Positions 8,290 to 26,366 are shown, counted from the stretch's first letter. The stretch: DNA of 32,000 bases from Rhodoferax sp. (GCA_964203415.1 CAXNME010000002.1:31961-63960), one strand, 5' to 3'. The notes: a model not told the origin generated them from the sequence alone. Program-made: numbers and translations.

Positions 8290-8481
8290 GTTTGCGCTTG
8301 CTCCTACAAAAATTGGATATCCGGGGCCGTCCAGCTAGCCCGACAGTGTATTCAGCAGCGCGACCCTGAAGGATGCAATTGCGACTGTGGTTTTCACAAT
8401 GTCGCCAAAGCCGTTGCACAGAGCCAGCGCGCGGACCCCCGCCTAGAATCCCGGCACCTCCCTTATCCAAGTCACTTTTCC

Positions 8482-8865
8482 ATGCAAACCTTCTCCACAC
8501 ACCTTGATGCGCTTGAATGGACACAGTGGCCGCCGGACCAGATCGCCACACGCGGTAAGGCGCAATGGAAGGAGCTGCTGGGCAGTGGCTCCGGGTGCCA
8601 GAACGACATGACGATGGGTGTCGTTCGCCTGCGGCAAGGCGAATCGCTCGAGCCGCATCGCCACGCACAGCCTGAGACCTACTTCACGCTGTCAGGACGC
8701 GGCACGGTCACCATTGAGGACGTGGTGCACAGCGTCGACCCGGGGCGGACCTTGTTCATACCCGGTAACGCCCGACACCAGATCAACAACGTGGATGCAG
8801 AAGATCTGCTGATTCTGTATGCGTTTGCCGTCAGCGATTTCAGCAAGATTCAGTATCACTTCTGA
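8482..8865 (+). CDS. Cupin-domain protein (127 aa)
   Basis: This is the in-frame ATG inside the 6877..8865 ORF, just past the divergent start of the flavoprotein gene. It contains cupin motif-like LEPHRHAQPETYFTLSGRG and LFIPGNARHQINN. The Shine-Dalgarno is weak, so the start is uncertain. Confidence 0.65.
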   Translation: MQTFSTHLDALEWTQWPPDQIATRGKAQWKELLGSGSGCQNDMTMGVVRLRQGESLEPHRHAQPETYFTLSGRGTVTIEDVVHSVDPGRTLFIPGNARHQINNVDAEDLLILYAFAVSDFSKIQYHF

Positions 8866-8966
8866 GCGCGCCAACGGCCGTAGGCTGGGACCGCGCTGTG
8901 CGCTATCCACGATGAAACGGTCAGTGCGCTGCTATTTTTCTGCTGACTTACAACGAGGAATCTCCC

Positions 8967-9682
8967 ATGTACAAATTAGTGGCATTTGATGCTTACGGCA
9001 CCTTGTTTGACGTGTATTCCATGGGCCAGTTGGCCGAAGAACTGTTCCCTGGCAATGGCCAAGCCCTGGCATTGATGTGGCGTGACCGGCAAATTGAATA
9101 CACGCGTCTGGTCACCATGAGCGATCCCAACCCCGAGGGGAGTCGGCACTACCTGCCGTTTTGGGAATTGACGGTGCGCTCCTTGCGGCTACTGCTGCAA
9201 ACGCCTGCACCTGCCGCTGAGTGCGGGCAACGAGCAGCTGCCTGATGGACCAGTACGCCAAGCTCACCGGATTTGCGGACAGCTTGGAAGTCCTGCGATC
9301 TATCAAGACCCAAGGCTTATCAACGGCCATTTTGTCCAACGGAAGTCGGGAGATGCTTTCCACAGTGGTCACCGCGAATGGCTTGACCCCTTACTTGGAT
9401 CAGGTCGTCTCCGTGGAGGATGTGCGGCTATTTAAAACTGCGCCGCAAGCCTACGAGCTACTGCTGAAAAACTTCCCTGTGGCCAAACAAGAAATACTGT
9501 TTGTCTCCAGCAACGCGTGGGATGCATTGGCCGCCAAATGGTATGGGTTTGATGTGTTTTGGGTGAACCGGCTGGGGCATCCGTTTGAGGAGATTGGCGA
9601 AAGCCCCAACTTTGAAGGGACGTCACTGTCGGAAGTGTTGGCGGTTCTGAACCCGCCGGCAGTACAAAAAGAAACACCGTAG
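8967..9682 (+). pseudogene. Type II haloacid dehalogenase (HAD superfamily), interrupted by two +1 insertions
   Basis: N-terminus is MYKLVAFDAYGTLFDV (the DxYGT nucleophile motif); C-terminus has ILSNGS...LFVSSNAWDALAAKWYGF. The reading frame goes 0 -> +1 near 9187-9188 (cGGc) and +1 -> +2 near 9241-9242 (gCCt). The middle frame reads YCCKRLHLPLSAGNEQL. Confidence 0.8.
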
Positions 9683-9702
9683 TACCTTGCGAAACTACGG
9701 TG
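9662..9702 (-). terminator. Hairpin terminator downstream of tRNA-Phe (shared with the convergent HAD gene)
   Basis: Perfect 9-bp stem CACCGTAGT / ACTACGGTG (9675-9683 / 9694-9702) with a 10-nt loop. On the minus strand it is followed by TTTCTTTTTGT. Confidence 0.55.
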
Positions 9703-9708
9703 TAAATC

Positions 9709-9784
9709 TGGTGGCCTGGGGCGGAATCGAACCACCGACACAAGGATTTTCAATCCTCTGCTCTACCGACTGAGCTACCGGGCC
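9709..9784 (-). tRNA. tRNA-Phe (anticodon GAA), 76 nt with encoded CCA
   Basis: The reverse complement is GGCCCGGTAGCTCAGTCGGTAGAGCAGAGGATTGAAAATCCTTGTGTCGGTGGTTCGATTCCGCCCCAGGCCACCA. It folds as a cloverleaf with D arm GCTC/GAGC, anticodon loop TTGAAAA and T arm GGTGG/CCGCC. Note the C5-A68 and G27-U43 non-Watson-Crick pairs. Confidence 0.95.
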
Positions 9785-9826
9785 AGAGGCGGGATTGTAA
9801 CTGGCAAAACCGCTGTTTCGGGTTCC
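9743..9826. repeat. Island direct repeat, left copy (part of intact tRNA-Phe plus upstream flank)
   Basis: 9751-9809 is identical to 21283-21341 (59 nt). Similarity extends to AGGATTTT (anticodon stem/loop). After an 8-nt indel it continues to TCGGGTTCC (9818-9826 = 21343-21351). Confidence 0.85.
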
Positions 9827-9957
9827 TGCTGTGAGCCACTGCGAGCCCCAGCGTTGCGCACCGTGGGCAGGCTACTTCACCGTGAGCGTGCTCCAGCAAT
9901 GCTCACCGCACACCGCCCGCACACCAAAACAGGGCTGGACATGGGGAGCGTGGCAGC

Positions 9958-11234
9958 GTGAAGCCCACCCAACTCAGCTACCCCACGCCTGACCAACTCA
10001 CGGCTGCACCCGCCACACCCCCCGCACTCGCAAGCACCAAGCTGATCGCCCAGCCACCCCGCAGCCAACTGCACCACCTGCGTGATGGCGCTGTGGTGCT
10101 CTACAAGCGCGAGCGCAGCAGCATTTGGCAGATGCGCTTCAAGCTGTATGACCATGTGTGGCACAGAGCCACCACCCGACACAGAGACCTGGGCTACGCC
10201 CGCCGTGCGGCTGGGGAGATCTACGACAGAGCCAAATTCAAGGAAGAACTGGGCATCCCGCAAACCACCCGCCGCTTTGGCGCTGCCGCAGCGCAGTGCC
10301 TCGTGCAACTGGAGGCTGAGATTGCGCAGGGCTTGCGCCCCATGACCAACAGGGACTACCAGCGGGTGATCCGCAAATACCTGGTGCCGTTCTTTGGCAA
10401 ATACAACCTCACCAGCATTGATGCCAAGCTGGTGCGGGAGTTTGAGATCTGGCGCAACCAGCAGATTGGACACATGCCCATCGCCAGCACACTGGCAACC
10501 CACTGCGCTGCCTACAACAGAGTGATTGAAGTGGCAGTTGAGCAGGGCTGGCACAGCGCCCAGTCCAATATCGCACGGCTCAGCAGGCGCGGTGCCAAAA
10601 GCCGCGCACGACCTGGCTTTACCACCGCAAGAGATTGACCAACTGCTGGCTTTCATGCCTGCTTGGTGCGAGGGTGGGCACAGACACACAGGTAGGCAGA
10701 TCAAGCTGTTGCTGCGGGACTATGTGGAACTGCTGCTCACCACAGGCATGCGCTGCGGCAAAGAAAGCATGAACATGCTGTGGCAGCACATTGAATGGCA
10801 CACGGATCAACGAGCAACGCTATCTGCGCATCTGGGTATCAGGCAAAACAGGCGGCAGGTGGTTGATTGCCAAACACAGAGCAGCGTCAGCACTGGAACG
10901 ACTGGCACAGCGCCAGCGCAGTGTGAGCATGAGCCTGCCAGACGCAATAGCGGCAAAGCTGCCCCAACGGGTATTCACCTTGGACGATGGCTCACAGCCC
11001 TATGGCTTGGCTGGCACTTTCCAGCGCATGTTGGCAGCGGCAGGACTCAGCCGAGACATGAGCACTGGGCAGCAACGAACCTTGTATAGCCTGCGGCACA
11101 CCTACGCTACGATAGAACTCATGTCAGGCACGGACATCCATACGCTGGCGCGGCAGATGGGCACCAGTGTGATCATGCTGGAGCGGCACTATTCCAAGCT
11201 CACCGCAACCATGGCGGCGCAGCAGTTGGCTTGA
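9958..11234 (+). pseudogene. Tyrosine (phage-type) integrase with two frameshifts
   Basis: Three overlapping ORFs (9958..10638, 10526..11089, 10791..11234) join into one ~425-aa integrase. The shifts lie near 10620-10630 (..RPGFT|PQEIDQLLAF..) and near 10806 (..IEWHT|INEQRYLRIWVSGKTGG..). The C-terminus carries LRHTYAT...GTSVIMLERHYSK (catalytic H-x-x-R and Tyr box). Confidence 0.85.
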
Positions 11235-11255
11235 GCGGGTGGGGGTGGCTCTTGG

Positions 11256-11274
11256 GTGTCGTGTTGAACGACAC
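11256..11274. repeat. Island palindrome copy H1: GTGTCGT-GTTGA-ACGACAC
   Basis: Perfect 7-bp arms, 21 nt after the integrase stop codon. Confidence 0.9.
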
Positions 11275-11444
11275 TCAAAAGCCGCGCCACGCATGGGCAC
11301 GGCTTTGGCGCTTACACGGCAACATTTAAAGAAGCAAGGCTAAGAACGAACATCAACGCCACTGGCAAGGCGCTGGGCTGGGGCGAGTGAAGATAATGTT
11401 GCACGCCGTCGGTAAAAAAACTCAACCAGATGGAGGGAACCTAA

Positions 11445-11648
11445 TCAATTTTTCTTTTTGAAAAAAGTCCTATAAATCAATGTCCCAACTGCATAAAGAG
11501 TGACCAATGAAAAAATCACGAGCACGATTATTTCTGTCTCTGTCAGTTGCTCCGGAAACATGGTGACATGTTCATAGGTAGTGATGAATGTATTGATTAC
11601 AGGATTTTCTTCCCTATATTTCAAGTATGCCGCTCCGCCATCCATCAT
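11445..11648 (-). CDS. Small hypothetical membrane protein (67 aa) in low-GC insert 1
   Basis: ORF with one C-terminal hydrophobic helix (IIVLVIFSLVTLYAVGTLIY) followed by a KKKN tail. It is AT-rich, unlike the host. I have no homology support. Confidence 0.35.
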   Translation of the reverse strand: MMDGGAAYLKYREENPVINTFITTYEHVTMFPEQLTETEIIVLVIFSLVTLYAVGTLIYRTFFKKKN

Positions 11649-11773
11649 TTACTCCTAAAAATACTTATTCATTACGCACCCTACTCGCTTTGCAAGTATC
11701 TACTCATCACTGGCGAAAAAATCCCTAAAGATTTTATGGTTGCTTCTTATTCCGCGGTGTAAGTCCCCAGCTC

Positions 11774-12007
11774 TACGGCTTGGCTGGCACTTCCCAGCGC
11801 ATGTTGGCAGCAGCAGGACTCAGCCGAGACATGAGCACTGGGCAGCAACGAACATTGTATAGCCTGCGACACACCTACGCTACGATGGAACTCATGTCAG
11901 GCACGGACATCCACACGCTGGCGCGGCAGATGGGCACCAGTGTGATCATGCTGGAGCGGCACTACAGCAAACTCACTGCCACCATGGCGGCGCAGCAGTT
12001 GGCTTGA
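11774..12007 (+). pseudogene. Orphan 3' fragment of a second, related integrase gene
   Basis: ~232 nt that are ~94-95% identical to 11003-11234. It encodes ...LYSLRHTYATMELMSGTDIHTLARQMGTSVIMLERHYSKLTATMAAQQLA, the same C-terminus as the full integrase. No upstream part of the gene is present. Confidence 0.85.
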
Positions 12008-12027
12008 ATGGGGGGTGGCGTTGTTGG

Positions 12028-12046
12028 GTGTCGTTTCACACGACAT
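12028..12046. repeat. Island palindrome copy H2: GTGTCGT-TTCAC-ACGACAT
   Basis: It sits at the same distance after the integrase-fragment stop as H1 does after the full gene. However, the 5-nt centre has the opposite polarity (TTCAC is the reverse complement of GTGAA), and there is one arm mismatch. Confidence 0.85.
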
Positions 12047-12411
12047 TTTATTGAAGGTGCCCACCGAAAGACCACCTTAGTTGTCGGTCGAGATCCAGTG
12101 TTGCACTTAGTGGTTGATCCGCCTTGTTAAAAATCGCCCTCAGCACCATTTTGACGCTGACAGAAAATACAGTCTCAAAGGTATGCACAATTAGACAACC
12201 ACCTTCAAAGTCACCGCTTCTTATTTAAACGAATCGTACTTATGGTTGGTATCTGAAAACCTTTCCGTTTCTCTCAAGACCAATCAATTCTCACGCGAGG
12301 AATATCTGAAGCAATCAAATTTTTGCAAGGTAGATAAGATGCTAACTACAATTTAAATTTAACAGCTTAATCAATTCAGTCATGATATGTAATCATCCAC
12401 TGATGTGAAAC

Positions 12412-13695
12412 TCAATGAATCATTGAAAACTCAACAAGATACACCGCGGCACCTGCAAAATAACCAACTAATGCTAAGCCACTAATGTTTTTGAGATACC
12501 AAACGAAGTCAATTTTTTCAAGACCCATTGCAGCAACACCAGCAGCAGAACCAATTATCAAAATAGATCCACCAGTTCCTGCGCAATAAGCCAAGAACTC
12601 CCAAATAAAGCTATCTGGCGGGTATTGTTCAAGGCTATACATGCCCATAGAAGCCGCGACTAGAGGAACGTTATCAACAATGGCACTCACTAAGCCAATA
12701 AGCATAACAATGGCATCCAGTCTCCCCACTGTAACATCGAGCCATTTAGCTACAGAACTTAATATATTAGTATGTTCTAAAGTTGCGACAGCAAGCAGGA
12801 TACCAATAAAGAAAACAATTGATGACATGTCAATGCGAGAAAGTGCATGAGACAAGTCCAAATGGTTCCGCGCTTCAAATGACTTATCTTTATGTAATAA
12901 ATCACCCACTAGCCAGAGCAGTCCTAAACCCAACAAAACCCCCATAAATGGGGGTAAATGTGTAAAAGTCTTAAAAGCAGGAACGGCAATAAGCACGCCC
13001 AAACCCAAGTAAAACATAATGTTGCGCTCACTCACAGTACTGGCAAAATGGTTATTACTGGCAACCTGCTGGGGAGGGACAACAGGCTTTGCCCGCAACA
13101 TCCAGCTGGTTATCAGAAGCGGGAAAGCTAGATTAACAAGGGATGGAAGAATTAAAGCCTTTACTATTTCTGTAGCGGTCACTTGACCGCCAATCCACAG
13201 CATGGTGGTTGTGACGTCACCAATAGGCGACCAAGCACCCCCCGCATTGGCCGCAATCACAATCATTCCTGCGAAAAACAAACGGTCATCACGCTTATCT
13301 AGCAGCTTTTTCATGAGTGATACCATAACAATCGCGGTTGTTAAGTTGTCAAGGATTGCACTCAAGAAAAATGTTACCACGCAAACAATCCACATAAGTG
13401 TGGCCAAGCTGGTGGTTTTGATTTTAGAAGTGACAACATCAAAGCCGTCGTGAGCATCGACAACTTCTACAATTGTCATTGCCCCCATCAAGAAAAATAC
13501 TATCTGTGCCGTACTGATGAGTGTCTCACCCAACTCCTCATTGAGTACATGCAGGTCTGGTGATGCAACCGCATAGATAGACCAAAGCAAACCCGCGCCT
13601 AGCAAAGCAGATGCCGATTTGTTTATCTTGATTGGATGTTCAAATGCGATTGCTGCATACGTAACAACAAAAACTATAATCAGTATTGTAGTCAT
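12412..13695 (-). CDS. nhaD: NhaD-type Na+/H+ antiporter (ArsB/NhaD permease superfamily)
   Basis: 427-aa polytopic protein. Motifs IAANAGGAWSPIGDVTTTMLWIGGQ and VDNVPLVAASMGMY resemble NhaD antiporters. The gene is AT-rich (low-GC insert 2) and intact. Confidence 0.8.
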   Translation of the reverse strand: MTTILIIVFVVTYAAIAFEHPIKINKSASALLGAGLLWSIYAVASPDLHVLNEELGETLISTAQIVFFLMGAMTIVEVVDAHDGFDVVTSKIKTTSLATLMWIVCVVTFFLSAILDNLTTAIVMVSLMKKLLDKRDDRLFFAGMIVIAANAGGAWSPIGDVTTTMLWIGGQVTATEIVKALILPSLVNLAFPLLITSWMLRAKPVVPPQQVASNNHFASTVSERNIMFYLGLGVLIAVPAFKTFTHLPPFMGVLLGLGLLWLVGDLLHKDKSFEARNHLDLSHALSRIDMSSIVFFIGILLAVATLEHTNILSSVAKWLDVTVGRLDAIVMLIGLVSAIVDNVPLVAASMGMYSLEQYPPDSFIWEFLAYCAGTGGSILIIGSAAGVAAMGLEKIDFVWYLKNISGLALVGYFAGAAVYLVEFSMIH

Positions 13696-13806
13696 TTTGG
13701 TGATGTAGATGTAGATGAAGCCTAGTCGGGTGACATTACTCTTTGTTATAATATAGCATAAATTTACATCAATGAAAAATCCCTGTGAGTCAAAAGGGCA
13801 TACACA

Positions 13807-14331
13807 ATGTCAATATCTGCTAAGTCAATTCGAGCTTTTTACGACCGTCAAGTAGGCTGGCGTAAAAAATTCTATCTTTATCTTTTTTGCGTTTATCTCC
13901 CAATTTGCGCAGTAATGTCTTTCGAGATGAAGATACCTCCTGTTGGTGGTCTGCTGATTGAAAACAATTTGAGATCAGCTCTCGATAAACAACACATCGC
14001 GACCGAAGTAAGCATCTATACAGATGTAGATATGGATTTACCAATCCAACAAACAGATACAACCTTAAAAGAAATGATAAAAGGTGATGACAAAAACAAA
14101 GTGATTGTTCTTGATACGATTGGAAAAAAATGGGTTTATTGGCTAGTCTTGGGTGACGGAGTAACAAATGAAACCCGTGATTACGTCATATCCACCGCAA
14201 CGGAGCAAATCAAAAGTACTTACCGTTTAGAATATTTAAAAGAGCTTTTTACTTACTTAATAGCATCCACTCTTCTGGCAATCATCGCTTATATATTTGG
14301 AGTATTTTTAGAAAATCTTGGTAAAAAATGA
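13807..14331 (+). CDS. Hypothetical membrane-anchored protein (174 aa)
   Basis: ORF in low-GC insert 2 with an N-terminal TM (FYLYLFCVYLPICAVM) and a C-terminal TM (LIASTLLAIIAYIFGVFL). I recognise no family. Confidence 0.45.
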   Translation: MSISAKSIRAFYDRQVGWRKKFYLYLFCVYLPICAVMSFEMKIPPVGGLLIENNLRSALDKQHIATEVSIYTDVDMDLPIQQTDTTLKEMIKGDDKNKVIVLDTIGKKWVYWLVLGDGVTNETRDYVISTATEQIKSTYRLEYLKELFTYLIASTLLAIIAYIFGVFLENLGKK

Positions 14332-14614
14332 ACGAATACTATAAATGCGTAATTCATAATAATTTTTTTAATTGCATGGAAAATATTTTGGTTTTATGTC
14401 CGAGACAATACGCTTGAATTGAGTCGCTTCACCCGCGCATTCAAATGCACGGCTTTTGCACTGCCTATGGGCACCACATTCAAGCGATGTCCTACGCATA
14501 GGAGGCTGCGTTAAAAGGAAAGGAAGCCGACGAGGATGACCTTAAGACGGAATAATCTTTATTACGACAACGCGAAATGAACCATTCGAATCATTAAATG
14601 GCTCACTCCTTTAA

Positions 14615-14633
14615 GTGTCGTGTGAAACTACAC
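14615..14633. repeat. Island palindrome copy H3: GTGTCGT-GTGAA-ACTACAC
   Basis: One arm mismatch (T at 14629). It is followed by a duplicate of the ATPase 3' end. Confidence 0.85.
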
Positions 14634-14716
14634 TGCCTTGGCTGGCACGCCGCACCCGAAGTGCCAATGTGATGACCGCGCTCTTGATCTGCCTTGCGCT
14701 GCTCATTGCACGGCGT
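14634..14716 (-). pseudogene. Orphan duplicate of the 3' end of the AAA+ ATPase gene
   Basis: TGCCTTGGCTGGCACGCCGCACCCGAAGTGCCAATGTGATGACCGCGCTCTTGATCTGCC... matches 15327-15408 with a few substitutions and a 2-nt indel. Confidence 0.7.
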
Positions 14717-14783
14717 GAGGAGGACTGGTGGGCGCTAACCCATTCTGAAATTTCGTTTTAAGCAGCTAGCGCGGCGTATAGAC

Positions 14784-14813
14784 GAAAAAAAACCCGCCGT
14801 TTTAAGGAGCGGG
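14784..14813 (-). terminator. Rho-independent terminator after the 101-aa gene
   Basis: The minus strand reads CCCGC-tccttaaaac-GGCGGG followed by TTTTTTTT, 8 nt after the stop at 14821. Confidence 0.65.
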
Positions 14814-14820
14814 AATTTTA

Positions 14821-15126
14821 TTATTGAATGCCACGCGCGAACTTTGATTTTCTGCTTACGGTCAAATACAGCTCGCTGTATTCGTAATGGCAGCCATACA
14901 TGGCAGCGAAAGTATTTCCGTGTTCGCTAACGACCTTGTGAATTCCTGCCAGACTTGAGATTTCTACGCGTATTATTTTTTCGAACATGTAAGTAGCCCG
15001 TCCTTCCTCTGCGTTAAAGCTGTAGCGCCCACCCAATTGTTTCGCAATGTTCTCCAGTGTCTTTGCACTGGCGTCTGCGAAAAACAAGTCAAAGCCGCGC
15101 ACCAAAGCCAATTCTTTCGAGTCCAT
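14821..15126 (-). CDS. Hypothetical protein (101 aa) in low-GC insert 3
   Basis: Intact AT-rich ORF with its own terminator. I recognise no family. Confidence 0.5.
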   Translation of the reverse strand: MDSKELALVRGFDLFFADASAKTLENIAKQLGGRYSFNAEEGRATYMFEKIIRVEISSLAGIHKVVSEHGNTFAAMYGCHYEYSELYLTVSRKSKFARGIQ

Positions 15127-15303
15127 ACAATTTCCTCTGTGTTATTTGACGCCAGCGATTGATGCCAATCGCTGGCTGTTGATATCAAGCCGTGTGATTG
15201 ACAGCGTGAGTCAGAAGACCAATCTGTCTCACGCCGTCAGCCATCTATTTCTTTGCCGCTGGTTCAGCTGCCACCTAAATGAACCCTCAAATGGTTCGCT
15301 GAT

Positions 15304-15997
15304 TTAGGTGTCGTGTGAAACGACACTGCCTTGACTGGCACGCCGCACCCGAAGTGCCAATGTGATAACCGCGCTCTTGATCTGCCGTGCGCTGCCATTG
15401 CACGGCGTGATCACCGCTGCCAGTTGTGCATCACTCACGCCACCCACACCCGCATGGGCAAGGATGCGCCGCGCCAGCGGCAACCAACGCTCTGCGGGTG
15501 CTGCGTTGAACGGGATGCAGTGGCAGCGATCCCGCACGCCAGATTCAATGGCAGTGAAGTCGTTGGTGGTCAGCACCCACGCCGTGCGCGCGTTGGTTCA
15601 TCACGGACTTCAGGATCGCCATGGCGTCCTTGTTCAGTTGATCCACCTCGTCCAACACGAAGTAACGATACTTGCCCTGCGGCATCAGAATGGCTGCGTT
15701 GGCTATATGAGTGACCATCTTCAAGCCATTGGCGCCTGGCTGCACCCGCACATACATCTCGCCAGCACTCATGCCCCCATCGCGCTGCCTCTATGGCATC
15801 AGGCAATAGTTTCGCCAACGCACTCTTGCCAGTGCCAGGGATGCCATACAGCAAGATGCCGCATTTGCCCTCAGTGATGGGAAATGGATGCTGACTCGTG
15901 ATCAGATCCTGAATGAAATCCCTTGTGCTGCTGCGCTGGAAAATGCAATGTCATCCAAGCACTTGGGACCAAAACGCTCCTCAAAATCGTCGAACAT
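15304..15997 (-). pseudogene. AAA+ ATPase (clamp-loader/RFC-like Walker A/B protein) with at least three frameshifts
   Basis: ATG at 15997 behind GAAGGAGAAC. The pieces in different frames are MFDDFEERFGPKCLDDI..., ..RSSTRDFIQDLITSQHPFPITEGKCGILLYGIPGTGKSALAKLLPDAIE (Walker A), ..KYRYFVLDEVDQLNKDAMAILKSVMN (Walker B), and ..LTTNDFTAIESGVRDRCHCIPF... The shifts are near 15940, 15795-15810 and 15580. Confidence 0.75.
15308..15326. repeat. Island palindrome copy H4: GTGTCGT-GTGAA-ACGACAC
   Basis: Perfect copy. It overlaps the last codons of the ATPase reading frame (..QGSVVSHDT*). Confidence 0.9.
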
Positions 15998-16062
15998 ATA
16001 GTTCTCCTTCAAATCAAGGTTGATCAAACAACGGGGCAGCGATGGCACTGCCCCGTGTGGCT

Positions 16063-16798
16063 TTAGGCTGGCACTGCTTCAGTAATCACCGCAGTGGCAG
16101 TGGCGGCTTGGATCGCAGCGTCCTTGCTGTCTGCTCTGCTGCTCTCCTGTGCCTGCGCTGCCTGTTGCTTGGCAGCATCACGCACCTCGCCGTGGTGGCT
16201 GGCAAGAGCCGCGTTCAGCGCAGTGGCGCTTTCCACCACTGCCTGCACCACCACAGAGCCGTCAGCCTGCCAAACGCCAATCAGCACCGTCTGTGTGCCA
16301 GCCTTGGCAACATCGTTGAACGAGCCGCTGAGTGCTGCGCTGCTGAACACGCCCATGTTCTTGTATGCCAGCACGCTGCTGGTCACCAGCGCCTTTTGTT
16401 TGGCGCTCATGGCGTTGGGTGCCTTGGCAAGGCGCACTTCCTCCACACCACCCGCGTCGCGGATGAACCGCGCCACATCCATGATGCCCACACCTTGTGC
16501 CAGCGCAGAGCGCAGCACGATGCTGTAGGCGCTCACGCGGCGGCGATCGCTGCCAAACACGCACTTGACGATGCGGGTCAAGGTGTGGGTGCTGGGCGGA
16601 GAACACATGCCCTTTGAGGCTGATGTAGGAGCGCAGCCCTTCGCGCAGCGCCTTTGCCTCTGCAGAGTCTTCGCACATGGCTTTGTAGAGCCCGTAGCAG
16701 CGTTGCAGCAAGCCATACAACTGCTCGTTGCTGGTGCGAAAGGCGTTTTCTTGCCAGACTTCACGCTCCAACACCAGTTGTTCGATGCTGGCGTGCAT
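16063..16798 (-). pseudogene. Hypothetical island protein (~245 aa) with a frameshift near 16597
   Basis: MHASIEQLVLEREVWQENAFRTSNEQLYGLLQRCYGLYKAMCEDSAEAKALREGLRSYISLKGHVFS (the frame of 16262..16798) continues as ..STHTLTRIVKCVFGSDRRRVSAYSIVLRSALAQGVGIMDVARFIRDAGGVEEV.. (the frame of 16063..16854). There is an extra C in a C-run. The true start may be the ATG at 16924 (see findings). Confidence 0.55.
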
Positions 16799-16835
16799 TG
16801 CCTTATGACCCTGGGCAAGGGTTTCGCCGTTTGGG

Positions 16836-16854
16836 GTGTCGTGTGAAACGACAC
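16836..16854. repeat. Island palindrome copy H5: GTGTCGT-GTGAA-ACGACAC
   Basis: Perfect copy (8-bp arms if the flanking G/C are included), 38 nt upstream of the ATG at 16798. Confidence 0.9.
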
Positions 16855-17172
16855 CTTGCTGCGGCGGGGTTGGTGGATGCCTCTGTGGATTGCAGGGCGG
16901 CGACGGGGCTGGCGATAGTTTGCATTTGATTTCTCCTTAAATGCAGGTTTAAAAAGACCGCATCTCTGCAGCCATCTTCACATCGCAAGTGCTTGTTTTT
17001 GCTTGCATTTTGTGTCGATGGATGGACTTTATCCATATCCTAATTACTTGTCGCTATCCACACAAATTGAAGATTATTTGTGGTAATGTTTATTGGTAAA
17101 TTACTTACTATCTGTAATCTCATTTATTCATTTGATTGCCATTTATCTTTTATTCGTGCTATCCTTTTTGGC

Positions 17173-18147
17173 ATGGATGACCAAAACGACCTCCACCCCC
17201 TGCAACTCAAGGAACTGCCCTCCACGCTGCGCCGTCGCCCACCACTGAATCCCGTGGTGATCCGTGAGATGAACGAGGAAAGGGCTGAGGAATCCCGCAA
17301 GGCACGCAACACTTGGTATTGGGTTTGGTATGAGTGCCTACGCTTGAGCGAGGACTACCAACGCTGCTGCAAGAACAACGGCAAGGGGCGGCTGCGCCAT
17401 GTGTATCAGGACTTTGGGGATGTGTGCAGGAAGCCATTTCCCATTTGGTGGCGCAGCACGGGCAGATACCTTTTTGCAGAGCAGAAGTCTGTGCCCGTGG
17501 TGCAGTGCTACACCAAGACCCATGAAATGGACGACATTGGCAGTCTGCGCGGCAAGATCTTGATTGAAGTGCCTTTGAACCTGCGCAAGGCAACTGCGGT
17601 GCGCCAGATCAACAAGATCCTCAAGACCGCGTATGAAGGTCGCGAGGTGATCCCACGCGAACAAAGCACCGCACGGCGGCGATTGGTCAAGAGCAAGTTG
17701 CGCCTGCCCACTGCCAAGATGATGCTGCGGCTATATGAACTGCGCCAGCGCAAGCCAGAACTCACGCTGTGGCAACTGGGTGAGGCAGCAGGGGTTGAAC
17801 TGAACTTGTATGCCCGCACCCAAGAGCCTGTGATACTGAGCGTGCAGGAAGAGCGCACACGCATGAACATCGCTGTGAGCAGGTATTTACGCCAAGCCCG
17901 CGAATTGATCACCAATGCCACAGAAGGCGTGTGCCCCAGCATCAAAGCCTTTTGCCAATCAGGTGCTCACAGCCGACGATGCCGTGGAATCTGTTCCGAA
18001 TGGAACAACTGCACGAGGATGACACCAGCGAGTGAAGTGTCGTTCAACACGACACCCCACGACCTTGCTGAGCAGTCAAACCAGTTCCACCGCCCGCCGC
18101 TTCATGTCGTCATTCACGGAAATATATTTTTGGGTGGTAGAAATTGA
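17173..18147 (+). CDS. Hypothetical protein with probable C-proximal helix-turn-helix
   Basis: ATG at 17173 follows a 240-bp AT-rich region. The sequence is ..NTWYWVWYECLRLSEDYQRCC.. and ..RKPELTLWQLGEAAGVELN.. (HTH-like). The last ~60 codons look like read-through (Cys/Arg-rich, crossing palindrome H6 and overlapping the convergent recombinase), so the true stop may be earlier or in another frame. Confidence 0.5.
   Translation: MDDQNDLHPLQLKELPSTLRRRPPLNPVVIREMNEERAEESRKARNTWYWVWYECLRLSEDYQRCCKNNGKGRLRHVYQDFGDVCRKPFPIWWRSTGRYLFAEQKSVPVVQCYTKTHEMDDIGSLRGKILIEVPLNLRKATAVRQINKILKTAYEGREVIPREQSTARRRLVKSKLRLPTAKMMLRLYELRQRKPELTLWQLGEAAGVELNLYARTQEPVILSVQEERTRMNIAVSRYLRQARELITNATEGVCPSIKAFCQSGAHSRRCRGICSEWNNCTRMTPASEVSFNTTPHDLAEQSNQFHRPPLHVVIHGNIFLGGRN
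18037..18055. repeat. Island palindrome copy H6: GTGTCGT-TCAAC-ACGACAC
   Basis: Perfect arms. The centre is the reverse complement of the H1 centre. It lies 20 nt beyond the stop codon of the small recombinase gene. Confidence 0.9.
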
Positions 18148-18651
18148 TCTTGTGCCCTGCCAGGCTTGCCAGCACAAACACACTGATGCCCTGTGACTTG
18201 CCAATGAGGTCAAAAAGGTCTTGCGACCGCTGTGGCTGCTGGCATTGCTGATGCCAGCGCGGCGATACAGCCAAAAGAAGTGCTGCGACAGGGTGTTGGC
18301 GCTGAAGCCGCGTCGCGGTCCCCTGTGTGTGTAGAACAAAGGCTGGGTTGGCTCATGCCAAGTGCGTGAGCCCACATACGCAGCAAGTTCTGCCTGTAGC
18401 CGTGTGCTCACATACACCGTCCTGGCATAGCCATGCTTGACCCTGTGGCTTGCCAAGTAGATCTCGCTCTTGATCGACCCATCACGATTACGCACATCCG
18501 CCAGGGTCAAATCTGCCACTTCCCCCACGCGAAGCCCTGCCATGACCGTGACCAGCAACATCACGCGATTACGCACAGCATGCGGGCGAGCAGCGATGTA
18601 GGTCAGGGCGGTTTCCAGTTCTGCGGGGGTGAGTGATTTGGCTGCTGTCAT
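18076..18651 (-). CDS. Small (~191 aa) catalytic-domain-only tyrosine recombinase
   Basis: ATG at 18651 behind GGAGAA. It has AGLRVGEVADL (Arg I), SSHSGRKTF (H-x-x-R) and STTQKYISV (Tyr). The segment between them is locally out of frame; the alternative frame reads LIGKSQGISVFVLASLAGHK. Confidence 0.8.
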   Translation of the reverse strand: MTAAKSLTPAELETALTYIAARPHAVRNRVMLLVTVMAGLRVGEVADLTLADVRNRDGSIKSEIYLASHRVKHGYARTVYVSTRLQAELAAYVGSRTWHEPTQPLFYTHRGPRRGFSANTLSQHFFWLYRRAGISNASSHSGRKTFLTSLASHRASVCLCWQAWQGTRSISTTQKYISVNDDMKRRAVELV

Positions 18652-18982
18652 CTTGCGTTCTCCAATAAGTTGATGCGTTTTTAGTATGTGATCTTTGTGG
18701 GGGCGAGGACAACCGAAACCCGCCACTTTGGCGGTGTATTCGTGATCTGTTCGATTTCAACGACTTACGCTGCCTCGATAGGAGTTCAACTGAACTCTTT
18801 GTTCGCGTATTTATCCAAGTCAGCAGTGGGCTGCTGGAATACTCAGTGGCAAAAAGCACAGCAAGCCCTACAAGCGCAGCAGCGCCCCTCTCGCTACCCA
18901 AGCCAGCACACACGGGGCTTGCGCTGCACACAGGGCGGATTTGAGGCGTGGCTGCGCTGACGCACTGCAAATCAGCCCCGCG

Positions 18983-19420
18983 TCATCCCCCGTGCGCTGG
19001 CTTTGAGTGTGGGCTTGTCTGCGTCCTGCGCGGGCACTTGTTGGGGCGGCTGCACGGGTATTTGTGTGGTAGACGCCCTGTGCCACAGTGCCAACGGGAG
19101 TTTGAGGCTCTGGCGCTGGGTAGCCCGCAGCACTGGGCGCAGGATTGGCTGCAGGGTTTGGTGCTGCCTGAGGTGGCAGCACTTGCTTTGGCACTTGGCT
19201 GCAGGCTGCGGGCATTGCCACGGGCTTGGGTCTTGGTGGCGTGCGTGGCGCGGGCTTTTTGGTGCGGCTGGGCTTGCGGCTCTTTGGCGCGAGCAGCCCG
19301 TTCCTGTTTGGCACGCTCTTGCGCCTCTGCCTGCTGCTGTAGTGCAGCCCAGGTGTTGTCGCTGATGACCTTCCACATGCCCAGCGCGGTTTGGGCGTCT
19401 TCGATCTCAGAGATACGCAT
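18983..19420 (-). CDS. Hypothetical protein; C-terminal half ambiguous between two frames
   Basis: The N-terminus MRISEIEDAQTALGMWKVISDNTWAALQQQAEAQERAKQERAARAKE is plausible and lies 40 nt downstream of the preceding gene. After ~60 aa, both this frame and the overlapping Pro-rich frame (18868..19548) are open, so a frameshift is possible. Confidence 0.35.
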   Translation of the reverse strand: MRISEIEDAQTALGMWKVISDNTWAALQQQAEAQERAKQERAARAKEPQAQPHQKARATHATKTQARGNARSLQPSAKASAATSGSTKPCSQSCAQCCGLPSARASNSRWHCGTGRLPHKYPCSRPNKCPRRTQTSPHSKPAHGG

Positions 19421-19462
19421 GGCTGTGCTCCTTGCTTGGCTTGGATGTGTTGGATGTGTGGT

Positions 19463-19972
19463 TCATGCCCATGTCTCCAAGTCTGTGTTGGTAGCCAGCA
19501 ACTGGGGTGAGTTCTTGCTGGAATGGGCGAGACGGCAGTTGCGCACATCCAACTTCCACGCCTCCTCCACTTCTGCCTCTGCGTCCAAGATCGCCAAGGT
19601 CAGCGCCTTGTCATTGGGGTGGAACACGCACACGCCATCTACTGGGGTCTTGTGTTTGGTCAGTGGGTCATATCGCTGCACCCAACTGAACAAGGCGTGG
19701 GGTTGGTCTTCTACGGATTCCAGCACCATCATCTGCTGGTCTGTGCGGGCTTGGTGTGCCCATTCTTCATACGAGAACAGGTCGATCAGGTATTTGACCT
19801 TGGGGGCTTTGAGATCTACGGTGCCGTTGTACACAGCCCGTCGATACAAGCCTTTGCCGTAGGTGGTTCCGTAGGCTTGGTTCTCAAACAAGCGCACTGC
19901 CACGCTGGTGGGTGGGTAAGAGATGAGGTTCAGGTTCAGCGCAGGCGTGCGCTCGATATCGCGGTTCAGCAT
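19463..19972 (-). CDS. Hypothetical protein (169 aa)
   Basis: ATG at 19972 behind AAGGAGA. Composition is balanced. I recognise no family. Confidence 0.55.
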   Translation of the reverse strand: MLNRDIERTPALNLNLISYPPTSVAVRLFENQAYGTTYGKGLYRRAVYNGTVDLKAPKVKYLIDLFSYEEWAHQARTDQQMMVLESVEDQPHALFSWVQRYDPLTKHKTPVDGVCVFHPNDKALTLAILDAEAEVEEAWKLDVRNCRLAHSSKNSPQLLATNTDLETWA

Positions 19973-20118
19973 AAGTTTCTCCTTGTGTTGCTGTAGGAGT
20001 TGCGCGGTTGCTGCTGTGTTGCGGAAGGTCGCACCTGGGGTCTCAGGTGTTGCTCCAAGTCGCAGAAGCCAAAAGATGTCTCGCGTAGCGGGTTGCTGGT
20101 TGCCTGTTTCCAGTCAGG

Positions 20119-20214
20119 GCTACTCATTTGTGCCCAATGTCGCAACTAGCAACATGCGACGCTTTTCTATCTCGCTACTCATTAGCAACTCCATAGCAAC
20201 TCATCGCAACTCGC
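20119..20214. repeat. Iteron-like cluster, consensus (A/C)GC(A/T)ACTC
   Basis: Four tandem units with 10-11 bp period: GCTACTCAT (20174), AGCAACTCCAT (20184), AGCAACTCAT (20195), CGCAACTCGC (20205). Related copies occur at 20119 (GCTACTCAT), 20141 (CGCAACTAG) and 20148 (AGCAACATG). All lie in the 433-bp divergent intergenic region. Confidence 0.6.
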
Positions 20215-20285
20215 AAATATTTATCTCTCGGCAAAGAAAGGCGTAATAAATCAGCGGTATTTGTTGGGGTTTTGGCAAAACTGAG

Positions 20286-20304
20286 GTGGCGTTTAACACG
20301 ACAC
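20286..20304. repeat. Island palindrome copy H7 (degenerate): GTGGCGT-TTAAC-ACGACAC
   Basis: One arm mismatch (GTGGCGT vs GTGTCGT) plus a variant centre (TTAAC vs TCAAC), i.e. two substitutions relative to H6. It shares the right flank CCTTGC with H5. Confidence 0.6.
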
Positions 20305-20405
20305 CTTGCGATGTCCCGCCAATCTGGCGGGTGATCGATCGACCAGAAACGGTGGTCGGATCACATACTTGTCTGTGCTTTATCAACAACTGAAAGGAAA
20401 AGCAC

Positions 20406-20846
20406 ATGGCAACCCTCACTTCCCTCAAACTCACCGCCGCGCAAAAGAGCGTGAATCTGCCCGCTGTCCAAGTGCGGCGCAACAAACTGCTGCTGCGTTT
20501 GGCAGAGCAGCAACAGATGGCTCGCGCCCAGCAAGCAGGCGAGGTGTTCAGCGCCACCAAACTGCGCTTGGTCAAGGACGCGGATACGGGCGTAAAGAAA
20601 CAGATCCTCACCAGCAAAAGAGTAAAGCCTTGGTGGTTCGTGTGCGAGAACGGAAAACTGGCGCTGGGTGTTCGCTATGGCGCACGCTTGCTGGAACTGG
20701 GCAAAGGCAAGTTCGCGGTTGAGATCGCCAGCCACAAAGAACTCTTGCCCACGCTGGACTTGATCAAGACGGCGGTGCAGGACGGGGAGTTGGATGCTGC
20801 GATGGAAGCAGCGTCTGGGCGAGTGCGAGCAGGCTTTGCGAAATAG
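20406..20846 (+). CDS. Conserved-looking hypothetical protein (146 aa)
   Basis: ATG behind GAAAGGAAAAG. The sequence MATLTSLKLTAAQKSVNLPAVQVRRNKLLLRLAEQQQMARAQQAGE...KPWWFVCENGKLALGVRYGARLLELGKGKFAVE.. resembles small proteins I recall from other proteobacterial islands. I do not assign a family name. Confidence 0.6.
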   Translation: MATLTSLKLTAAQKSVNLPAVQVRRNKLLLRLAEQQQMARAQQAGEVFSATKLRLVKDADTGVKKQILTSKRVKPWWFVCENGKLALGVRYGARLLELGKGKFAVEIASHKELLPTLDLIKTAVQDGELDAAMEAASGRVRAGFAK

Positions 20847-20940
20847 CCTGTTCGCCCTGCACCTTGTGTGCGTCTTGCTGCACATGCAAAACAGATACAG
20901 GGTGCTTCAGCACACCGCCCGCGCACCTTTTGCGCTGGCG

Positions 20941-21150
20941 CTACTGCGGGTCTTTCGCCTGCTGGCGCTGTTTTTCGTAGGCGTCGTAGGTGCCCATTTT
21001 TTCGGTGGGCGTTGCTGCGCCAGCATCTTTCACGCTTTGCTGCGTTCGCAAACCTTCGTAGATGGATTGCTCCGTAATCAAGCCACAGCCTGCCACCAAC
21101 AAGGCAACAAAAACCATGAACACTGAAAGAGATTTACGCATTGCCAGCAA
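20941..21150 (-). CDS. Small lipoprotein (island copy)
   Basis: Signal peptide plus lipobox MRKSLSVFMVFVALLVAGC. The mature part GLITEQSIYEGLRTQQSVKDAGAATPTEKMGTYDAYEKQRQQAK is paralogous to the ORF at 21388..21651. Confidence 0.65.
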   Translation of the reverse strand: MLAMRKSLSVFMVFVALLVAGCGLITEQSIYEGLRTQQSVKDAGAATPTEKMGTYDAYEKQRQQAKDPQ

Positions 21151-21271
21151 GTCTAATGCTGTGCCAGTTGCGCGATGGTGGAGAACTTTTTGCGGGCTGT
21201 CGCACAGGGCGTGCTACACCGTTTTTGATGGGGCTTTTGAGCCGTTGATTTTGCTGGATTTTTTCCGTGCC

Positions 21272-21316
21272 AGGATTTTTTTCAATCCTCTGCTCTACCG
21301 ACTGAGCTACCGGGCC
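21272..21316 (-). pseudogene. Displaced 5' fragment of tRNA-Phe (positions 1-42, expanded anticodon loop)
   Basis: The reverse complement GGCCCGGTAGCTCAGTCGGTAGAGCAGAGGATTGAAAAAAATCCT lacks the variable loop, T arm and 3' acceptor strand. Confidence 0.85.
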
Positions 21317-21351
21317 AGAGGCGGGATTGTAACTGGCAAAAATCGGGTTCC
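21272..21351. repeat. Island direct repeat, right copy
   Basis: See the left copy. It contains AGGATTTTTTTCAATCC (T7 versus T4 in the intact gene). Confidence 0.85.
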
Positions 21352-22027: not shown

Positions 22028-22920
22028 ATGTTCAGTTACCGCCACGCCTTCCACGCAGGCAACCACGCCGATGTACTCAAGCACACCATTTTGCTGGCCG
22101 TGCTCAAGCACATGGCGCAAAAAGACACACCGTTTACCGTTCTAGACACCCACGCCGGGGCGGGCCTGTACCGCCTGGATGGCGATTACGCCCAAACCAG
22201 CGCCGAGGCGGCCCAGGGCTTTGTGAAACTGATGGCAGCAAACGCTGGCGGCCAGGTTCTCACTCCAGTGGTGCAGGATTACGCGGACATGGTCGCCAGC
22301 TTCAACACCGGGCCGCAGGCGCGCGTCTACCCGGGCTCGCCCTTCATCATCCAGCAGCAACTGCGCGGGCGCGACAAGCTCAAGGCCTTTGAACTCCACC
22401 CCACCGACGCCAAGACCCTGGCGGCCAATATCGCCCAGCTCGAGGCGGGGCGGCAGGTCGCGGTGCTGCGCGAAGATGGCTTTGAAGGCGTGCGCAAATT
22501 TTTGCCCCTCCCACGCGGCGCGCGCTGCTGCTGTGCGACCCGAGTTATGAGGTCAAAACCGACTACCCGCGCCTGAACGCCATGGTGGCCGATGCGCTGC
22601 TGCGTTTTGCCACCGGCACCTACATGGTTTGGTACCCCATCATCCCGCGCCCCGAGGCGCATGACGTGCCGCGCAAGCTCAAGTCGCTGGCCATGAAAGC
22701 CGGCAAAGCCTGGTTGCACGCCACACTGACCGTCAAGTCCAGCAAGCTGCTTTTGGGCGATGACGGCCAGACCGTGCGGCCCGGCCTGCCCGCCAGCGGG
22801 GTGTTTCTGATCAACCCGCCCTTCACGCTCAAAGCCGCGCTCAAAGACGCCCTGCCGCAACTCGCCACCGTTCTGGCGCAGGACGGCAACGCCAGCTCCA
22901 CGCTAGACAGCGGTTCCTGA
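22028..22920 (+). pseudogene. rlmJ: 23S rRNA (adenine2030-N6)-methyltransferase RlmJ, one frameshift
   Basis: MFSYRHAFHAGNHADVLKH.. is the RlmJ N-terminus. The frame switches near the T5/C4 run at 22499-22508; the second frame reads APPTRRALLLCDPSYEVKTDY...YMVWYPII. Confidence 0.85.
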
Positions 22921-24682: not shown

Positions 24683-26197
24683 TTAGTAGCGGTAGGCGTC
24701 GGCCTTGTACGGCCCGGCCTTGCTCACGCCGATGTACGAGGCCTGCTCGTCCGTCAGTTCGGACAGCATGGCGCCGACTTTCTTCAGGTGCAGGCGCGCC
24801 ACTTTCTCGTCCAAATGCTTGGGCAACACATAGACCTTGCCGGCCTTGTAGTCCTTGGACTTGCTGAACAGCTCGATCTGCGCGATGGTCTGGTTGGCAA
24901 AGCTCGACGACATCACGAAGCTGGGGTGGCCGGTGCCGCAACCCAGGTTCACCAGACGGCCTTTGGCCAACAGGATGATGCGCTTGGCAGGCTTTTTGCC
25001 ACGGGCCGGGAAGGTCACGTGGTCGACTTGGGGCTTGATCTCGTCCCATTTGCACTTGGCCAGCGAGACCACGTCGATTTCGTTGTCAAAGTGGCCGATG
25101 TTGCAAACGATGGCCTCGTTTTTCATCGCGTCCATGTGCTTGTAGGTGATCACGTTTTTGTTGCCGGTGGCGGACACAAAGATGTCGGCCTTGTCAGCGG
25201 CGTAATCCATGGTCACGACTTTGTAGCCTTCCATAGCCGCTTGCAGCGCGTTGATCGGGTCGATCTCGGTCACCCACACTTGGGCCGACAGCGCGCGCAG
25301 CGCCTGCGCCGAACCCTTGCCCACGTCGCCGTAACCGGCGACCACGGCGACCTTGCCGGCGATCATCACGTCGGTGGCGCGCTTGATCGCGTCGACCAGC
25401 GATTCGCGGCAGCCGTACAGGTTGTCGAACTTGCTTTTGGTTACCGAGTCGTTGACATTGATGGCGCGGAACTTCAACTCGCCGCGTGCCGCCATTTCGT
25501 TGAGACGCAGCACGCCGGTGGTGGTTTCTTCGGTCACGCCAATGATGTTTTTCAAGCGGCGGCTGTACCAGGTCGAATCGACCTTGAGCTTGGCCTTGAT
25601 GGCGTTGAATAGGCAGATTTCTTCTTCGCTGCCCGGGTTGGCCAGCACTTTGATGTTCTTCTCGGCCTTGGCGCCCAGGTGCATCAACAAGGTGGCGTCG
25701 CCGCCGTCATCCAAAATCATGTTCGGGCCTTCGGCTGCACTGCCTTTTTTGCCGCTGAACTCAAAAATGCGGTGGGTGTAATCCCAGTAGTCGTCCAGGC
25801 TCTCGCCTTTGTATGCAAATACGGGCGTACCTTTCACGGCCAGCGCCGCAGCGGCATGGTCCTGGGTCGAATAGATGTTGCAGGAGGCCCAGCGCACGTC
25901 AGCGCCCAGGGCTTGCAAGGTCTCGACCAGCACGCCGGTCTGGATGGTCATGTGCAGCGAACCGGTGATGCGCGCGCCCTTGAGCGGCTGGGCCTGGGCA
26001 AATTCCTCGCGGATCGCCATCAGGCCAGGCATTTCGGTTTGGGCGATGTCCAGCTCTTTGCGGCCCCATGCGGCCAGCGTCAGGTCGGCGACCACGTAAT
26101 CGGGCGCGGTCGGGCGCAGCGTGCTGCTCACCAATTTCAAGGCTTTGGTGGCGCGTTTAGCGGAAGATTTTTTCGCGGGTTTCAATACAGCGTTCAT
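24683..26197 (-). CDS. ahcY: Adenosylhomocysteinase (S-adenosyl-L-homocysteine hydrolase)
   Basis: I chose the ATG at 26197 behind GGAG (the ORF-track start at 26338 lies inside the riboswitch). ..[28 protein letters not shown].. and [14 protein letters not shown] (NAD motif) are canonical. The product is 504 aa and includes a Lys/Ala-rich N-terminal extension. Confidence 0.9.
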
Positions 26198-26274
26198 GTC
26201 AGAGGCTCCAAAAAACAAGTTTTGATAACCACCGTGACCAGCCTGGAGAGAGGGACTCACCACACAAGACATCC

Positions 26275-26366
26275 GTGGGTGAGCGCAGTTGAAACATGCA
26301 AAGGCGCTAGGCCTCTGTACCCCGAGCCTCATCCACATTGCGTGAACTGCATCGCTCCTCAGAGTG
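26275..26366 (-). promoter_or_regulatory. SAH (S-adenosylhomocysteine) riboswitch in the ahcY leader
   Basis: The minus-strand RNA is CUCUGAGGAGCGAUGCAGUUCACGCAAUGUGGAUGAGGCUCGGGGUACAGAGGCCUAGCGCCUUUGCAUGUUUCAACUGCGCUCACCC. The GAGGAGCG, (C/G)AGGCUCGG and AAC(N)GCGCUCAC blocks match the SAH riboswitch core. A TAGAAT -10-like box lies at 26372-26377 (minus). Confidence 0.8.

Follow-up and report, generated by a model that had tools for sequence, protein, structure and literature searches.

A model of deletion and tandem accretion has been put forward for genomic islands (Pavlovic et al. 2004, cited in PMC4891358), and the described systems closest to the one presented here are the ICESt1/CIME composites and the composite islands at the tDNA-Asn of Klebsiella (PMC4891358). 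As they are outlined in that article, related elements lie side by side at one tRNA attachment (att) site, deletions strip recombination modules and leave composites behind, and the component integrases can be only ~74% identical; in these respects the island family described here is alike. We analysed a stretch of 32,000 nucleotides (nt) from Rhodoferax sp. (GCA_964203415.1 CAXNME010000002.1:31961-63960), hereafter the window, with positions counted from its first letter. It contains an 11.5-kb island (9810-21341) in the 5' half of a tRNA-Phe gene, and the region under study, a mosaic of inserts and duplicated gene ends, lies between the convergent integrase (int) and AAA-ATPase genes, where the island has its cargo slot. 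This mosaic was probably built by tandem accretion of related islands and internal deletions, with a later swap of cargo by homologous recombination. It is the work of an ordinary mechanism and no new cassette system, and it belongs to an island family that is abundant in freshwater Comamonadaceae (relatives of Rhodoferax and Limnohabitans) and apparently undescribed so far. The locus differs from the ICESt1/CIME composites in that its internal att sites are lost, its att is the tRNA 5' half, and its scars cluster to either side of one slot for cargo, where int and the ATPase gene converge.

The hotspots of SXT/R391 integrative and conjugative elements, and those near int in P4-like satellites, combine a conserved backbone with one intergenic spot that swaps accessory genes, presumably via flanking homology. 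Our island resembles them in having a single slot of exchanged accessory genes in a conserved backbone, but the backbone is unrelated and the sampled cargo is not made up of recognisable defence systems. The orphan 3' modules of rhs/cdiA genes, where a full gene is followed by same-orientation, 5'-truncated 3' fragments displaced by newer arrivals, offer an analogy only, as the int fragments here lack a variable tip or partner gene and are inert scars.

For comparison we used about 100 related loci from freshwater Comamonadaceae, numbered here with the prefix L. Scans with a rebuilt integrase (388 amino acids (aa), without the first 37 residues) gave 7 genome loci, from Rhodoferax, Limnohabitans and metagenome-assembled genomes of Comamonadaceae, and 80 lake-metagenome loci, while an exact look-up of the NhaD protein encoded in the mosaic found it in 14 contigs of independent short-read assemblies. 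A locus counted as informative if its int was long and was followed by 300 nt or more of sequence (n = 60). Specifically, L101-103 come from three separate studies and are ~85% identical to the window, and L111 is a 66.6-kb scaffold that has the same right chromosomal flank as the window and an island identity of 92-94%. The mosaic and the two genes that bound it, with their open reading frames (ORFs), are arranged in the window as follows.

9958-11234, plus strand: island integrase, a tyrosine recombinase (Pfam Phage_integrase and SAM_3); the window copy is broken by 1-nt insertions at 10627 and 10811 relative to L001 and L088
10995-11234, plus strand: A1, the live integrase 3' end (repeat search, alignment)
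11256-11274: palindrome H1, spacer GTTGA; core of an extended hairpin at about 11229-11298 (-40.7 kcal/mol, z -4.6)
11275-11767: insert 1, low GC, with a 67-aa membrane-like ORF at 11445-11648 (minus strand); travels with A2 and is absent from L111
11768-12007, plus strand: A2, a 5'-truncated integrase remnant (aa 310-388 of the rebuilt integrase query)
12028-12086: palindrome H2 (12028-12046, spacer TTCAC) and the semi-conserved int-side tail (12047-12086)
12087-14573: insert 2, the currently swappable cargo, with the NhaD Na+/H+ antiporter gene at 12412-13695 (minus strand) and a 174-aa ORF at 13807-14331 (plus strand)
14574-14716, minus strand: ATPase-side tail (14574-14614), palindrome H3 (14615-14633) and B1 (14634-14716), the last 27-34 codons of an ATPase gene
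14717-15257: insert 3, with a 101-aa ORF at 14821-15126 (minus strand); co-inherited with B1 and H4
15258-15326: tail (15258-15307) and palindrome H4 (15308-15326)
15304-15997, minus strand: clamp-loader-like AAA+ ATPase (Pfam AAA; PHROG clamp loader), whose 3' end is B2 (15327-15410); about four 1-nt insertions in the window copy

An earlier note on this DNA had described the region as three low-GC inserts interleaved with diverged duplicates of the int and ATPase 3' ends, and self-repeat search, alignment and GC content bear this out. GC content is 0.32-0.46 in the inserts and 0.55-0.64 around them. By repeat search and alignment, A1 (10995-11245) and A2 (11768-12018) match at 93% over 251 nt, and H3-B1 (14588-14702) matches H4-B2 (15281-15395) at 90% over 115 nt. 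B1 and B2 are separated by 3 synonymous substitutions and one extra T at 14703, which is missing from independent assemblies. The antiporter gene that had been recognised in insert 2 is likewise confirmed, by Pfam CitMHS and by NCBIfam NhaD_1 (168 bits against a cut-off of 80). In the coding part, A1 and A2 differ at 14 of 240 nt (94% identity), with 10 synonymous codon differences, among them a serine encoded by TCC or AGC, and 3 non-synonymous ones (P/L at the border, F/S and I/M). The earlier count was about 13 with two protein changes; F/S, I/M and the serine codons stand, while the number is 14 and P/L is a third change. Most A2 alleles at these 14 sites, the AGC codon included, also segregate in relatives, in int genes of full length. 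Only A2 has P to L, F to S and one or two silent changes; these private changes are mostly non-synonymous, as expected after truncation. All this fits a history in which A1 and A2 would have diverged in live genes of distinct island lineages, with A2 decaying once truncated, and it agrees with the earlier proposal that the copies diverged as functional genes in different elements. Additionally, A1 and A2 are repeated in the same direction and their peptides are nearly identical, which sets them apart from shufflons and other multiple-inversion systems, where alternative 3' gene segments for different C-termini lie between inverted sites.

The two scars, A2 and B1, are inherited separately. In L101-103, another integrase (~75% identical, without H1) is followed by insert 1, an identical junction between insert 1 and A2, A2, a palindrome, an ATPase remnant that we call the B-prime module, and the ATPase gene; insert 2, B1 and insert 3 are all absent from these loci. 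L098 and L099 possess the ATPase-side tail, H3, B1, insert 3, H4 and the ATPase gene (89-93% identity), and their cargo left of window position 14574 or 14462 is unrelated. L111 shows int, one H2-type palindrome and 2.8 kb of other cargo, and then the tail, H3, B1, insert 3, H4 and the ATPase gene, and it lacks H1, insert 1 and A2. In L105 and L106, H1, insert 1, A2 and H2 lead into yet other cargo. The right junction of B1 is common to the window, L001, L098, L099 and L111. Since A2 occurs without B1 in some relatives and B1 without A2 in others, the stretch from A2 to B1 was not captured as a unit and the histories of the scars are separate. The earlier suggestion that DNA bearing an int-palindrome-ATPase junction had been captured as one A2-H2-insert 2-H3-B1 block is contradicted by this split between L101-103 and L098, L099 and L111. 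A simple ancestral int/ATPase pair sharing one palindrome, also suggested, is found in no relative; each gene has its own palindrome and tail, with cargo between. Judging from these comparisons, the exchangeable cargo now spans about 12087-14573, and the scars appear older and travel with their flanks.

Related islands with different inserts at the same point, which the earlier note had proposed to search for, were found: the insert 2 interval holds other cargo in L098, L099, L101, L105, L106 and L111. No homologue of inserts 1-3 of the window occurs among the 87 scanned loci. The cargo ORFs of other loci are mostly of low GC (0.34-0.48), lie on both strands and encode MORN-repeat and TPR proteins, an AT3+SGNH acyltransferase, flagellin, an adhesin-E-like protein, a caspase-domain protein and the potassium transporter Kup; PADLOC found no defence systems in ten large cargo proteins. 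Nearly every contig of the related loci has its own accessory gene set in this one slot, and the sampled cargo includes ion transporters, surface proteins, an acyltransferase and flagellin. The stacked gene-end scars provide a readable record of island merging, shrinking and cargo swap that is useful for studying the microdiversity of lake bacterioplankton.

Among close relatives, int-side homology stops at or just past the palindrome, or past the ~45-nt semi-conserved tail, and several of the breaks lie only 0-12 nt from the int-side palindrome. On the ATPase side, homology restarts 40-110 nt before the palindrome, beyond the terminator. As the breakpoints are mostly past the tails and the terminator, the palindrome is neither the terminator nor, mostly, the crossover point, and capture at the palindrome, as formerly proposed, disagrees with cargo breakpoints that mostly fall 40-110 nt beyond it. 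Read in the direction of the gene, the ATPase-side palindrome comes first, next a conserved tail of 40 nt, and after it a canonical terminator, AGCCCGC-loop-GCGGGC-TTTTTT. The palindromes as intrinsic terminators were considered and rejected: only H2 has a T-run after it, and the real ATPase terminator is ~45 nt further on. In the ATPase-side tail, a 40-nt indel polymorphism (15258-15297) lies between CGCTG direct repeats, and short-read population variants lose most of this tail.

The 19-bp palindrome GTGTCGT-N5-ACGACAC has 7 matches against 0.13 expected by chance. Besides H1-H4, which start at 11256, 12028, 14615 and 15308 as had been noted, three more begin at 16836, 18037 and 20286, so that all matches fall between 11256 and 20304, within the island. 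The 20.5 kb of flanking chromosome in the window contain none. REP/BIME repeats are dispersed through host intergenic regions; of the copies in the 32,000 nt of the window, 7 of 7 are in the island. Almost all module boundaries are marked by the arms, which are kept even where int identity is as low as 49%. The palindromes are conserved boundary elements of the island backbone, and at most candidate crossover sites. Imperfect palindromes at module boundaries near a tyrosine recombinase gene recall integrons, but there is no IntI-type integrase here (19 bits with the NCBIfam integron integrase model, cut-off 265) and no attC-like GTTRRRY core; moreover, the slot is at the 3' end of int and not the 5' end, breakpoints lie outside the palindrome, and cargo is found in both orientations. 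Xer/dif modules (IMEX, pdif) also differ, their sites being 28 bp in an 11-6-11 arrangement, whereas the site here is 7-5-7 (19 bp) with extensions that are not dif-like. The view that no described cassette system accounts for the mosaic is therefore upheld by the comparisons with integrons, shufflons and Xer/dif modules. A 12-nt motif, CTTGGCTGGCAC, was tried as a crossover core. It occurs at 11006-11017 and 11779-11790, in int coding sequence 8 nt inside the left edges of A1 and A2, and at 14637-14648 and 15330-15341, directly after H3 and H4. It was rejected as a probable chance match, because the homology of the A copies begins 8 nt ahead of the motif and relatives do not keep the ATPase-side copy (CTTGACTGCCCC, CTTGATTGCCCC). 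The 5-nt palindrome centre is flipped between otherwise homologous sites of different contigs (14615-14633, 15308-15326; L099, L061, L062, L066), which inversion of the hairpin loop, or exchange of inverted int-side and ATPase-side copies, would produce.

Gene-end remnants recur across the family. One or two extra int fragments lie downstream of the full int in 17 of the 60 informative loci, and extra contigs begin within such stacks. The fragments have the same orientation as the full gene, nearly all reach near the C-terminus (tblastn ends at aa 371-388), start at scattered points between aa 220 and aa 368, and are 43-99% identical to the window integrase; 3'-truncated ints are few (L047, L054, L068). 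ATPase 3' remnants stand beside a palindrome in L001, L010, L012, L016 and L027, and the 330-nt B-prime remnant is common to L001, L048, L062 and L101. The idea of an accretion hotspot is thus well founded in the int and ATPase remnants. L001 shows a further layer of this stacking: a 2.2-kb segment with a Kup potassium transporter gene (L001 12117-14315) sits inside a B1-type ATPase remnant, flanked by overlapping partial copies of two different ATPase 3'-end alleles.

Tandem arrays are observed directly in relatives. L021 shows the DUF6641 gene that lies near the right end of the backbone, followed by an att core that lacks the 3' half of the tRNA and by int; in L032, such a core lies between two island bodies; and in L042, what comes after the internal att core is a decayed remnant that closes with a C-terminal piece of int. 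An ATPase remnant adjoins an int remnant in L010 (4511-4731) and L086, and in L016 an ATPase fragment (aa 149-220) adjoins int beginning at aa 34. These three junctions are of the type expected from deletion across the boundary of two tandem islands, as is the arrangement in L009 and L015, where an orf333-like core gene from the first island persists, with that island's int on one side and the aa 220-388 fragment of the following island on the other. Truncated genes of a second element inside a composite are thus represented by A2 and B1 in the window and by the junctions of L010, L016 and L086. Of the nested or tandem accretion envisaged before, the tandem form is supported by these arrays and nested capture is not.

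The order of events and the enzymes involved we infer as follows. Related islands would integrate serially at the same tRNA-Phe att site and form tandem arrays. Illegitimate internal deletions would then take out, from one island, the ATPase gene and core, together with the att site between the islands and the 5' portion of the integrase gene that follows, leaving one working int and one backbone, with the A2 and B1 ends beside cargo pieces (inserts 1 and 3). Finally, homologous recombination would act through the conserved flanks, which are the 3' end of int with its palindrome and tail to the left of the cargo and the tail, palindrome and 3' end of the ATPase gene to its right, and would exchange the middle cargo, here insert 2, between island variants. 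Several points weigh against this scheme. The interior of the window island holds no internal att remnant, only the two outer cores, so we infer the tandem stage for this particular island; an att-like match at the junction of insert 1 and A2 was discarded, as its local alignment score was reached by 71 of 300 shuffles. The A1-A2 identity of 94% exceeds the match of either copy to the int 3' end of any relative (at most 92%), for which gene conversion or a closer relationship could account. Some stacks are tight: in L001 a fragment directly follows int, in L058 a palindrome and 5 nt precede the fragment, and L061 is similar. A palindrome lies 5-48 nt before the int fragment in ~5 of 25 cases, and with the tight stacks this suggests that palindromes may bias deletion breakpoints. 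Finally, Campbell-type insertion of a circle with an int 3' fragment gives the same topology.

Such a Campbell-type or one-sided homologous insertion, in which a circle from a related island or linear DNA with a partial int or ATPase 3' end plus cargo enters with no tandem stage, is the rival that we take most seriously, although we hold it to be unlikely; it keeps some weight for the single unit A-H1-insert 1, where it gives the same topology. The window and L111 differ by exactly one repeat unit, A-H1-insert 1 (773 bp), in a single-crossover topology; almost all of the fragments retain the 3' end and differ in where they start on the 5' side; and the insert 1-A2-palindrome module stands behind two different integrases, from which it follows that the module moves by recombination. 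L111, however, could equally have lost the unit via A1/A2 recombination, and a clean A1/A2 chimera, which would have pointed to such a deletion, is not seen in its alleles at the diagnostic sites; as these sites are population polymorphisms, this carries no weight either way. Insertion of linear DNA would need an illegitimate join at the other end, circles of this kind have no known source, and neither the ATPase-remnant/int junctions in L010, L016 and L086 nor the internal att cores in L021 and L042 are explained. Local tandem duplication of the int and ATPase 3' ends in one island, with divergence in place, is very improbable. It would account for A1 and A2 being mutual closest relatives (94%), but their differences are mainly synonymous and are alleles shared with live int genes of other islands, A2 and insert 1 are also found behind an unrelated (75%) integrase, and elsewhere the fragments match the full gene beside them at no more than 43-85%.

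Site-specific cassette exchange at the 19-bp palindromes by int or by int2, the small second tyrosine recombinase of the backbone, in an integron- or Xer-like manner and with gene-end remnants as secondary-site by-products, is kept as a minority possibility of low probability, on account of the unexplained second recombinase and the strong conservation of the palindromes. The arms are conserved at nearly every module boundary down to 49% int identity, int2 is in every backbone, several homology breaks lie 0-12 nt from the int-side palindrome, palindromes stand directly upstream of fragments more often than random endpoints suggest, and the central spacer is flipped (GTGAA versus TTCAC) between homologous sites. 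Against these stand cargo breakpoints that are mostly beyond the tails and terminator, fragment 5' ends spread over ~150 codons, cargo-flanking palindromes that are mutually inverted and would yield inversion rather than excision, two palindrome copies within coding sequence, and cargo genes in both orientations with their own promoters. Arms of 7 bp around a 5-nt spacer are also short for the core site of a tyrosine recombinase. A broader version, equally improbable to us, would make the palindromes and tails recognition sites of an island tyrosine recombinase, most plausibly int2, and would turn the island into a platform on which cargo and gene-end modules recombine at or beside these sites; the remnants of int and the ATPase gene would then be footprints of exchange instead of random deletion; only if the palindromes prove to be recombinase sites would a new recombination mechanism be at hand. 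To an assembly artefact, in which two island copies or co-occurring strains would have been joined into a chimera or collapsed into one, we assign next to no probability. The many 1-nt insertions do mark the window assembly as error-prone, but the whole order int-H1-insert 1-A2-H2-insert 2-H3-B1-insert 3-H4-ATPase is reproduced at 98-99.9% in MEGAHIT/Logan short-read contigs of at least 10 samples, and related mosaics occur in many other assemblies. This reproduction by independent short-read assemblies excludes mis-assembly, and the mosaic is not the chimera about which the earlier note had cautioned. Tandem accretion with internal deletions and later cargo exchange thus remains our preferred account.

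The remaining features of the island and its target are given below.

9709-9784, minus strand: tRNA-Phe (GAA), the integration target (ARAGORN; Rfam tRNA, 66 bits)
9747-9809: attL, a direct repeat of 63 bp that covers 38 nt at the 5' end of tRNA-Phe and 25 nt upstream; identical copy at 21279-21341
16836-16854: palindrome H5, inside the 5' end of orf286; core of a long hairpin (-36.9 kcal/mol)
18037-18055: palindrome H6, between the convergent orf333 and small recombinase genes
18076-18726, minus strand: int2, small tyrosine recombinase with the catalytic domain only (Pfam Phage_integrase, 7e-18; NCBIfam Xer- and invertase-like models below cut-offs)
20286-20304: palindrome H7, ~100 nt upstream of the DUF6641 gene
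20406-20846, plus strand: DUF6641 gene
21279-21341: attR, the second copy of the 63-bp repeat, at the right island end

The 63-bp repeats likewise bound the complete islands of L018 and L031 and the island of L111. Between them, the order is int (plus), the mosaic, the clamp-loader-like AAA+ ATPase (minus), orf286 (minus), orf333 (plus), the small tyrosine recombinase (minus) and DUF6641 (plus), and this order and orientation are kept across clades, down to 49% int identity in the Limnohabitans isolate L004. Int starts ~150 nt from attL. With an integrase near one end and direct repeats that contain tRNA sequence, the element is a tRNA-integrated island with a tyrosine integrase, whose excision and integration activity is putative. 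No circular junction or empty site was recovered for the island, a search for phage or satellite genes found none, and an Rfam search of the region was empty. Orf286 and orf333 have no match in Pfam, PHROG, NCBIfam, PDB sequences or phage searches, and the AlphaFold model of orf286 (pLDDT 67.6) has no fold match at E <= 0.001. Every island backbone includes int2 (~190-216 aa).

The palindrome is read in one frame (VVSHDT) at the C-terminus of the ATPase (15304-15326) and near the N-terminus of orf286 (16836-16854; residues 24-30), and the orf286 family alignment conserves 'VV.NDT'. Upstream of the DUF6641 gene (window 20286-20330; L004 14022-14085), the palindrome and a 'CTTG...CCCGCCAA' flank are conserved between clades at 49% int identity and are tandemly duplicated in L004; from this arrangement, the element looks like an operator.

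The att repeat covers the 5' half of tRNA-Phe (5' end through anticodon loop) and a further 25 nt upstream, and not the usual 3' end; the upstream region of the tRNA must therefore come from the island after integration. The DNA on the 3' side of tRNA-Phe varies by genome, with HAD/GcvT, methyltransferase/RF3 or an inverted unrelated integrase (window 8410-9704 versus the left flanks of L001 and L111; L010 19-369; L036 487-1644), and this side may be a second integration hotspot. In L001, an insert-3-like sequence is joined to an inverted copy of the GcvT region.

The frameshifts in the window int and ATPase genes are probably sequencing errors and not real pseudogenes. The integrase is an intact 427-aa ORF in L088, L091 and L092, and the ATPase an intact 229-aa ORF in L090, L099 and L111. 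Against the short-read mosaic contigs, all 1-nt indels are insertions in the window (10627, 10811, 14703, 14743, 14768, 15194, 15588, 15779, 15925, 15934, 16018 and 16597). Indels of 1 nt, of which nearly all across the window are insertions (including those at 22506, 23662 and 24130), also split the window rlmJ, metF and tlyA genes, which are intact in the syntenic scaffold L111. As int and ATPase are intact elsewhere and these chromosomal genes are split as well, the apparent pseudogenisation most likely reflects sequencing error. The HAD gene at 8967-9682 likewise looks split. Outside the island, an S-adenosylhomocysteine (SAH) riboswitch at 26274-26366 (minus strand) lies upstream of the S-adenosylhomocysteine hydrolase gene (24683-26338).

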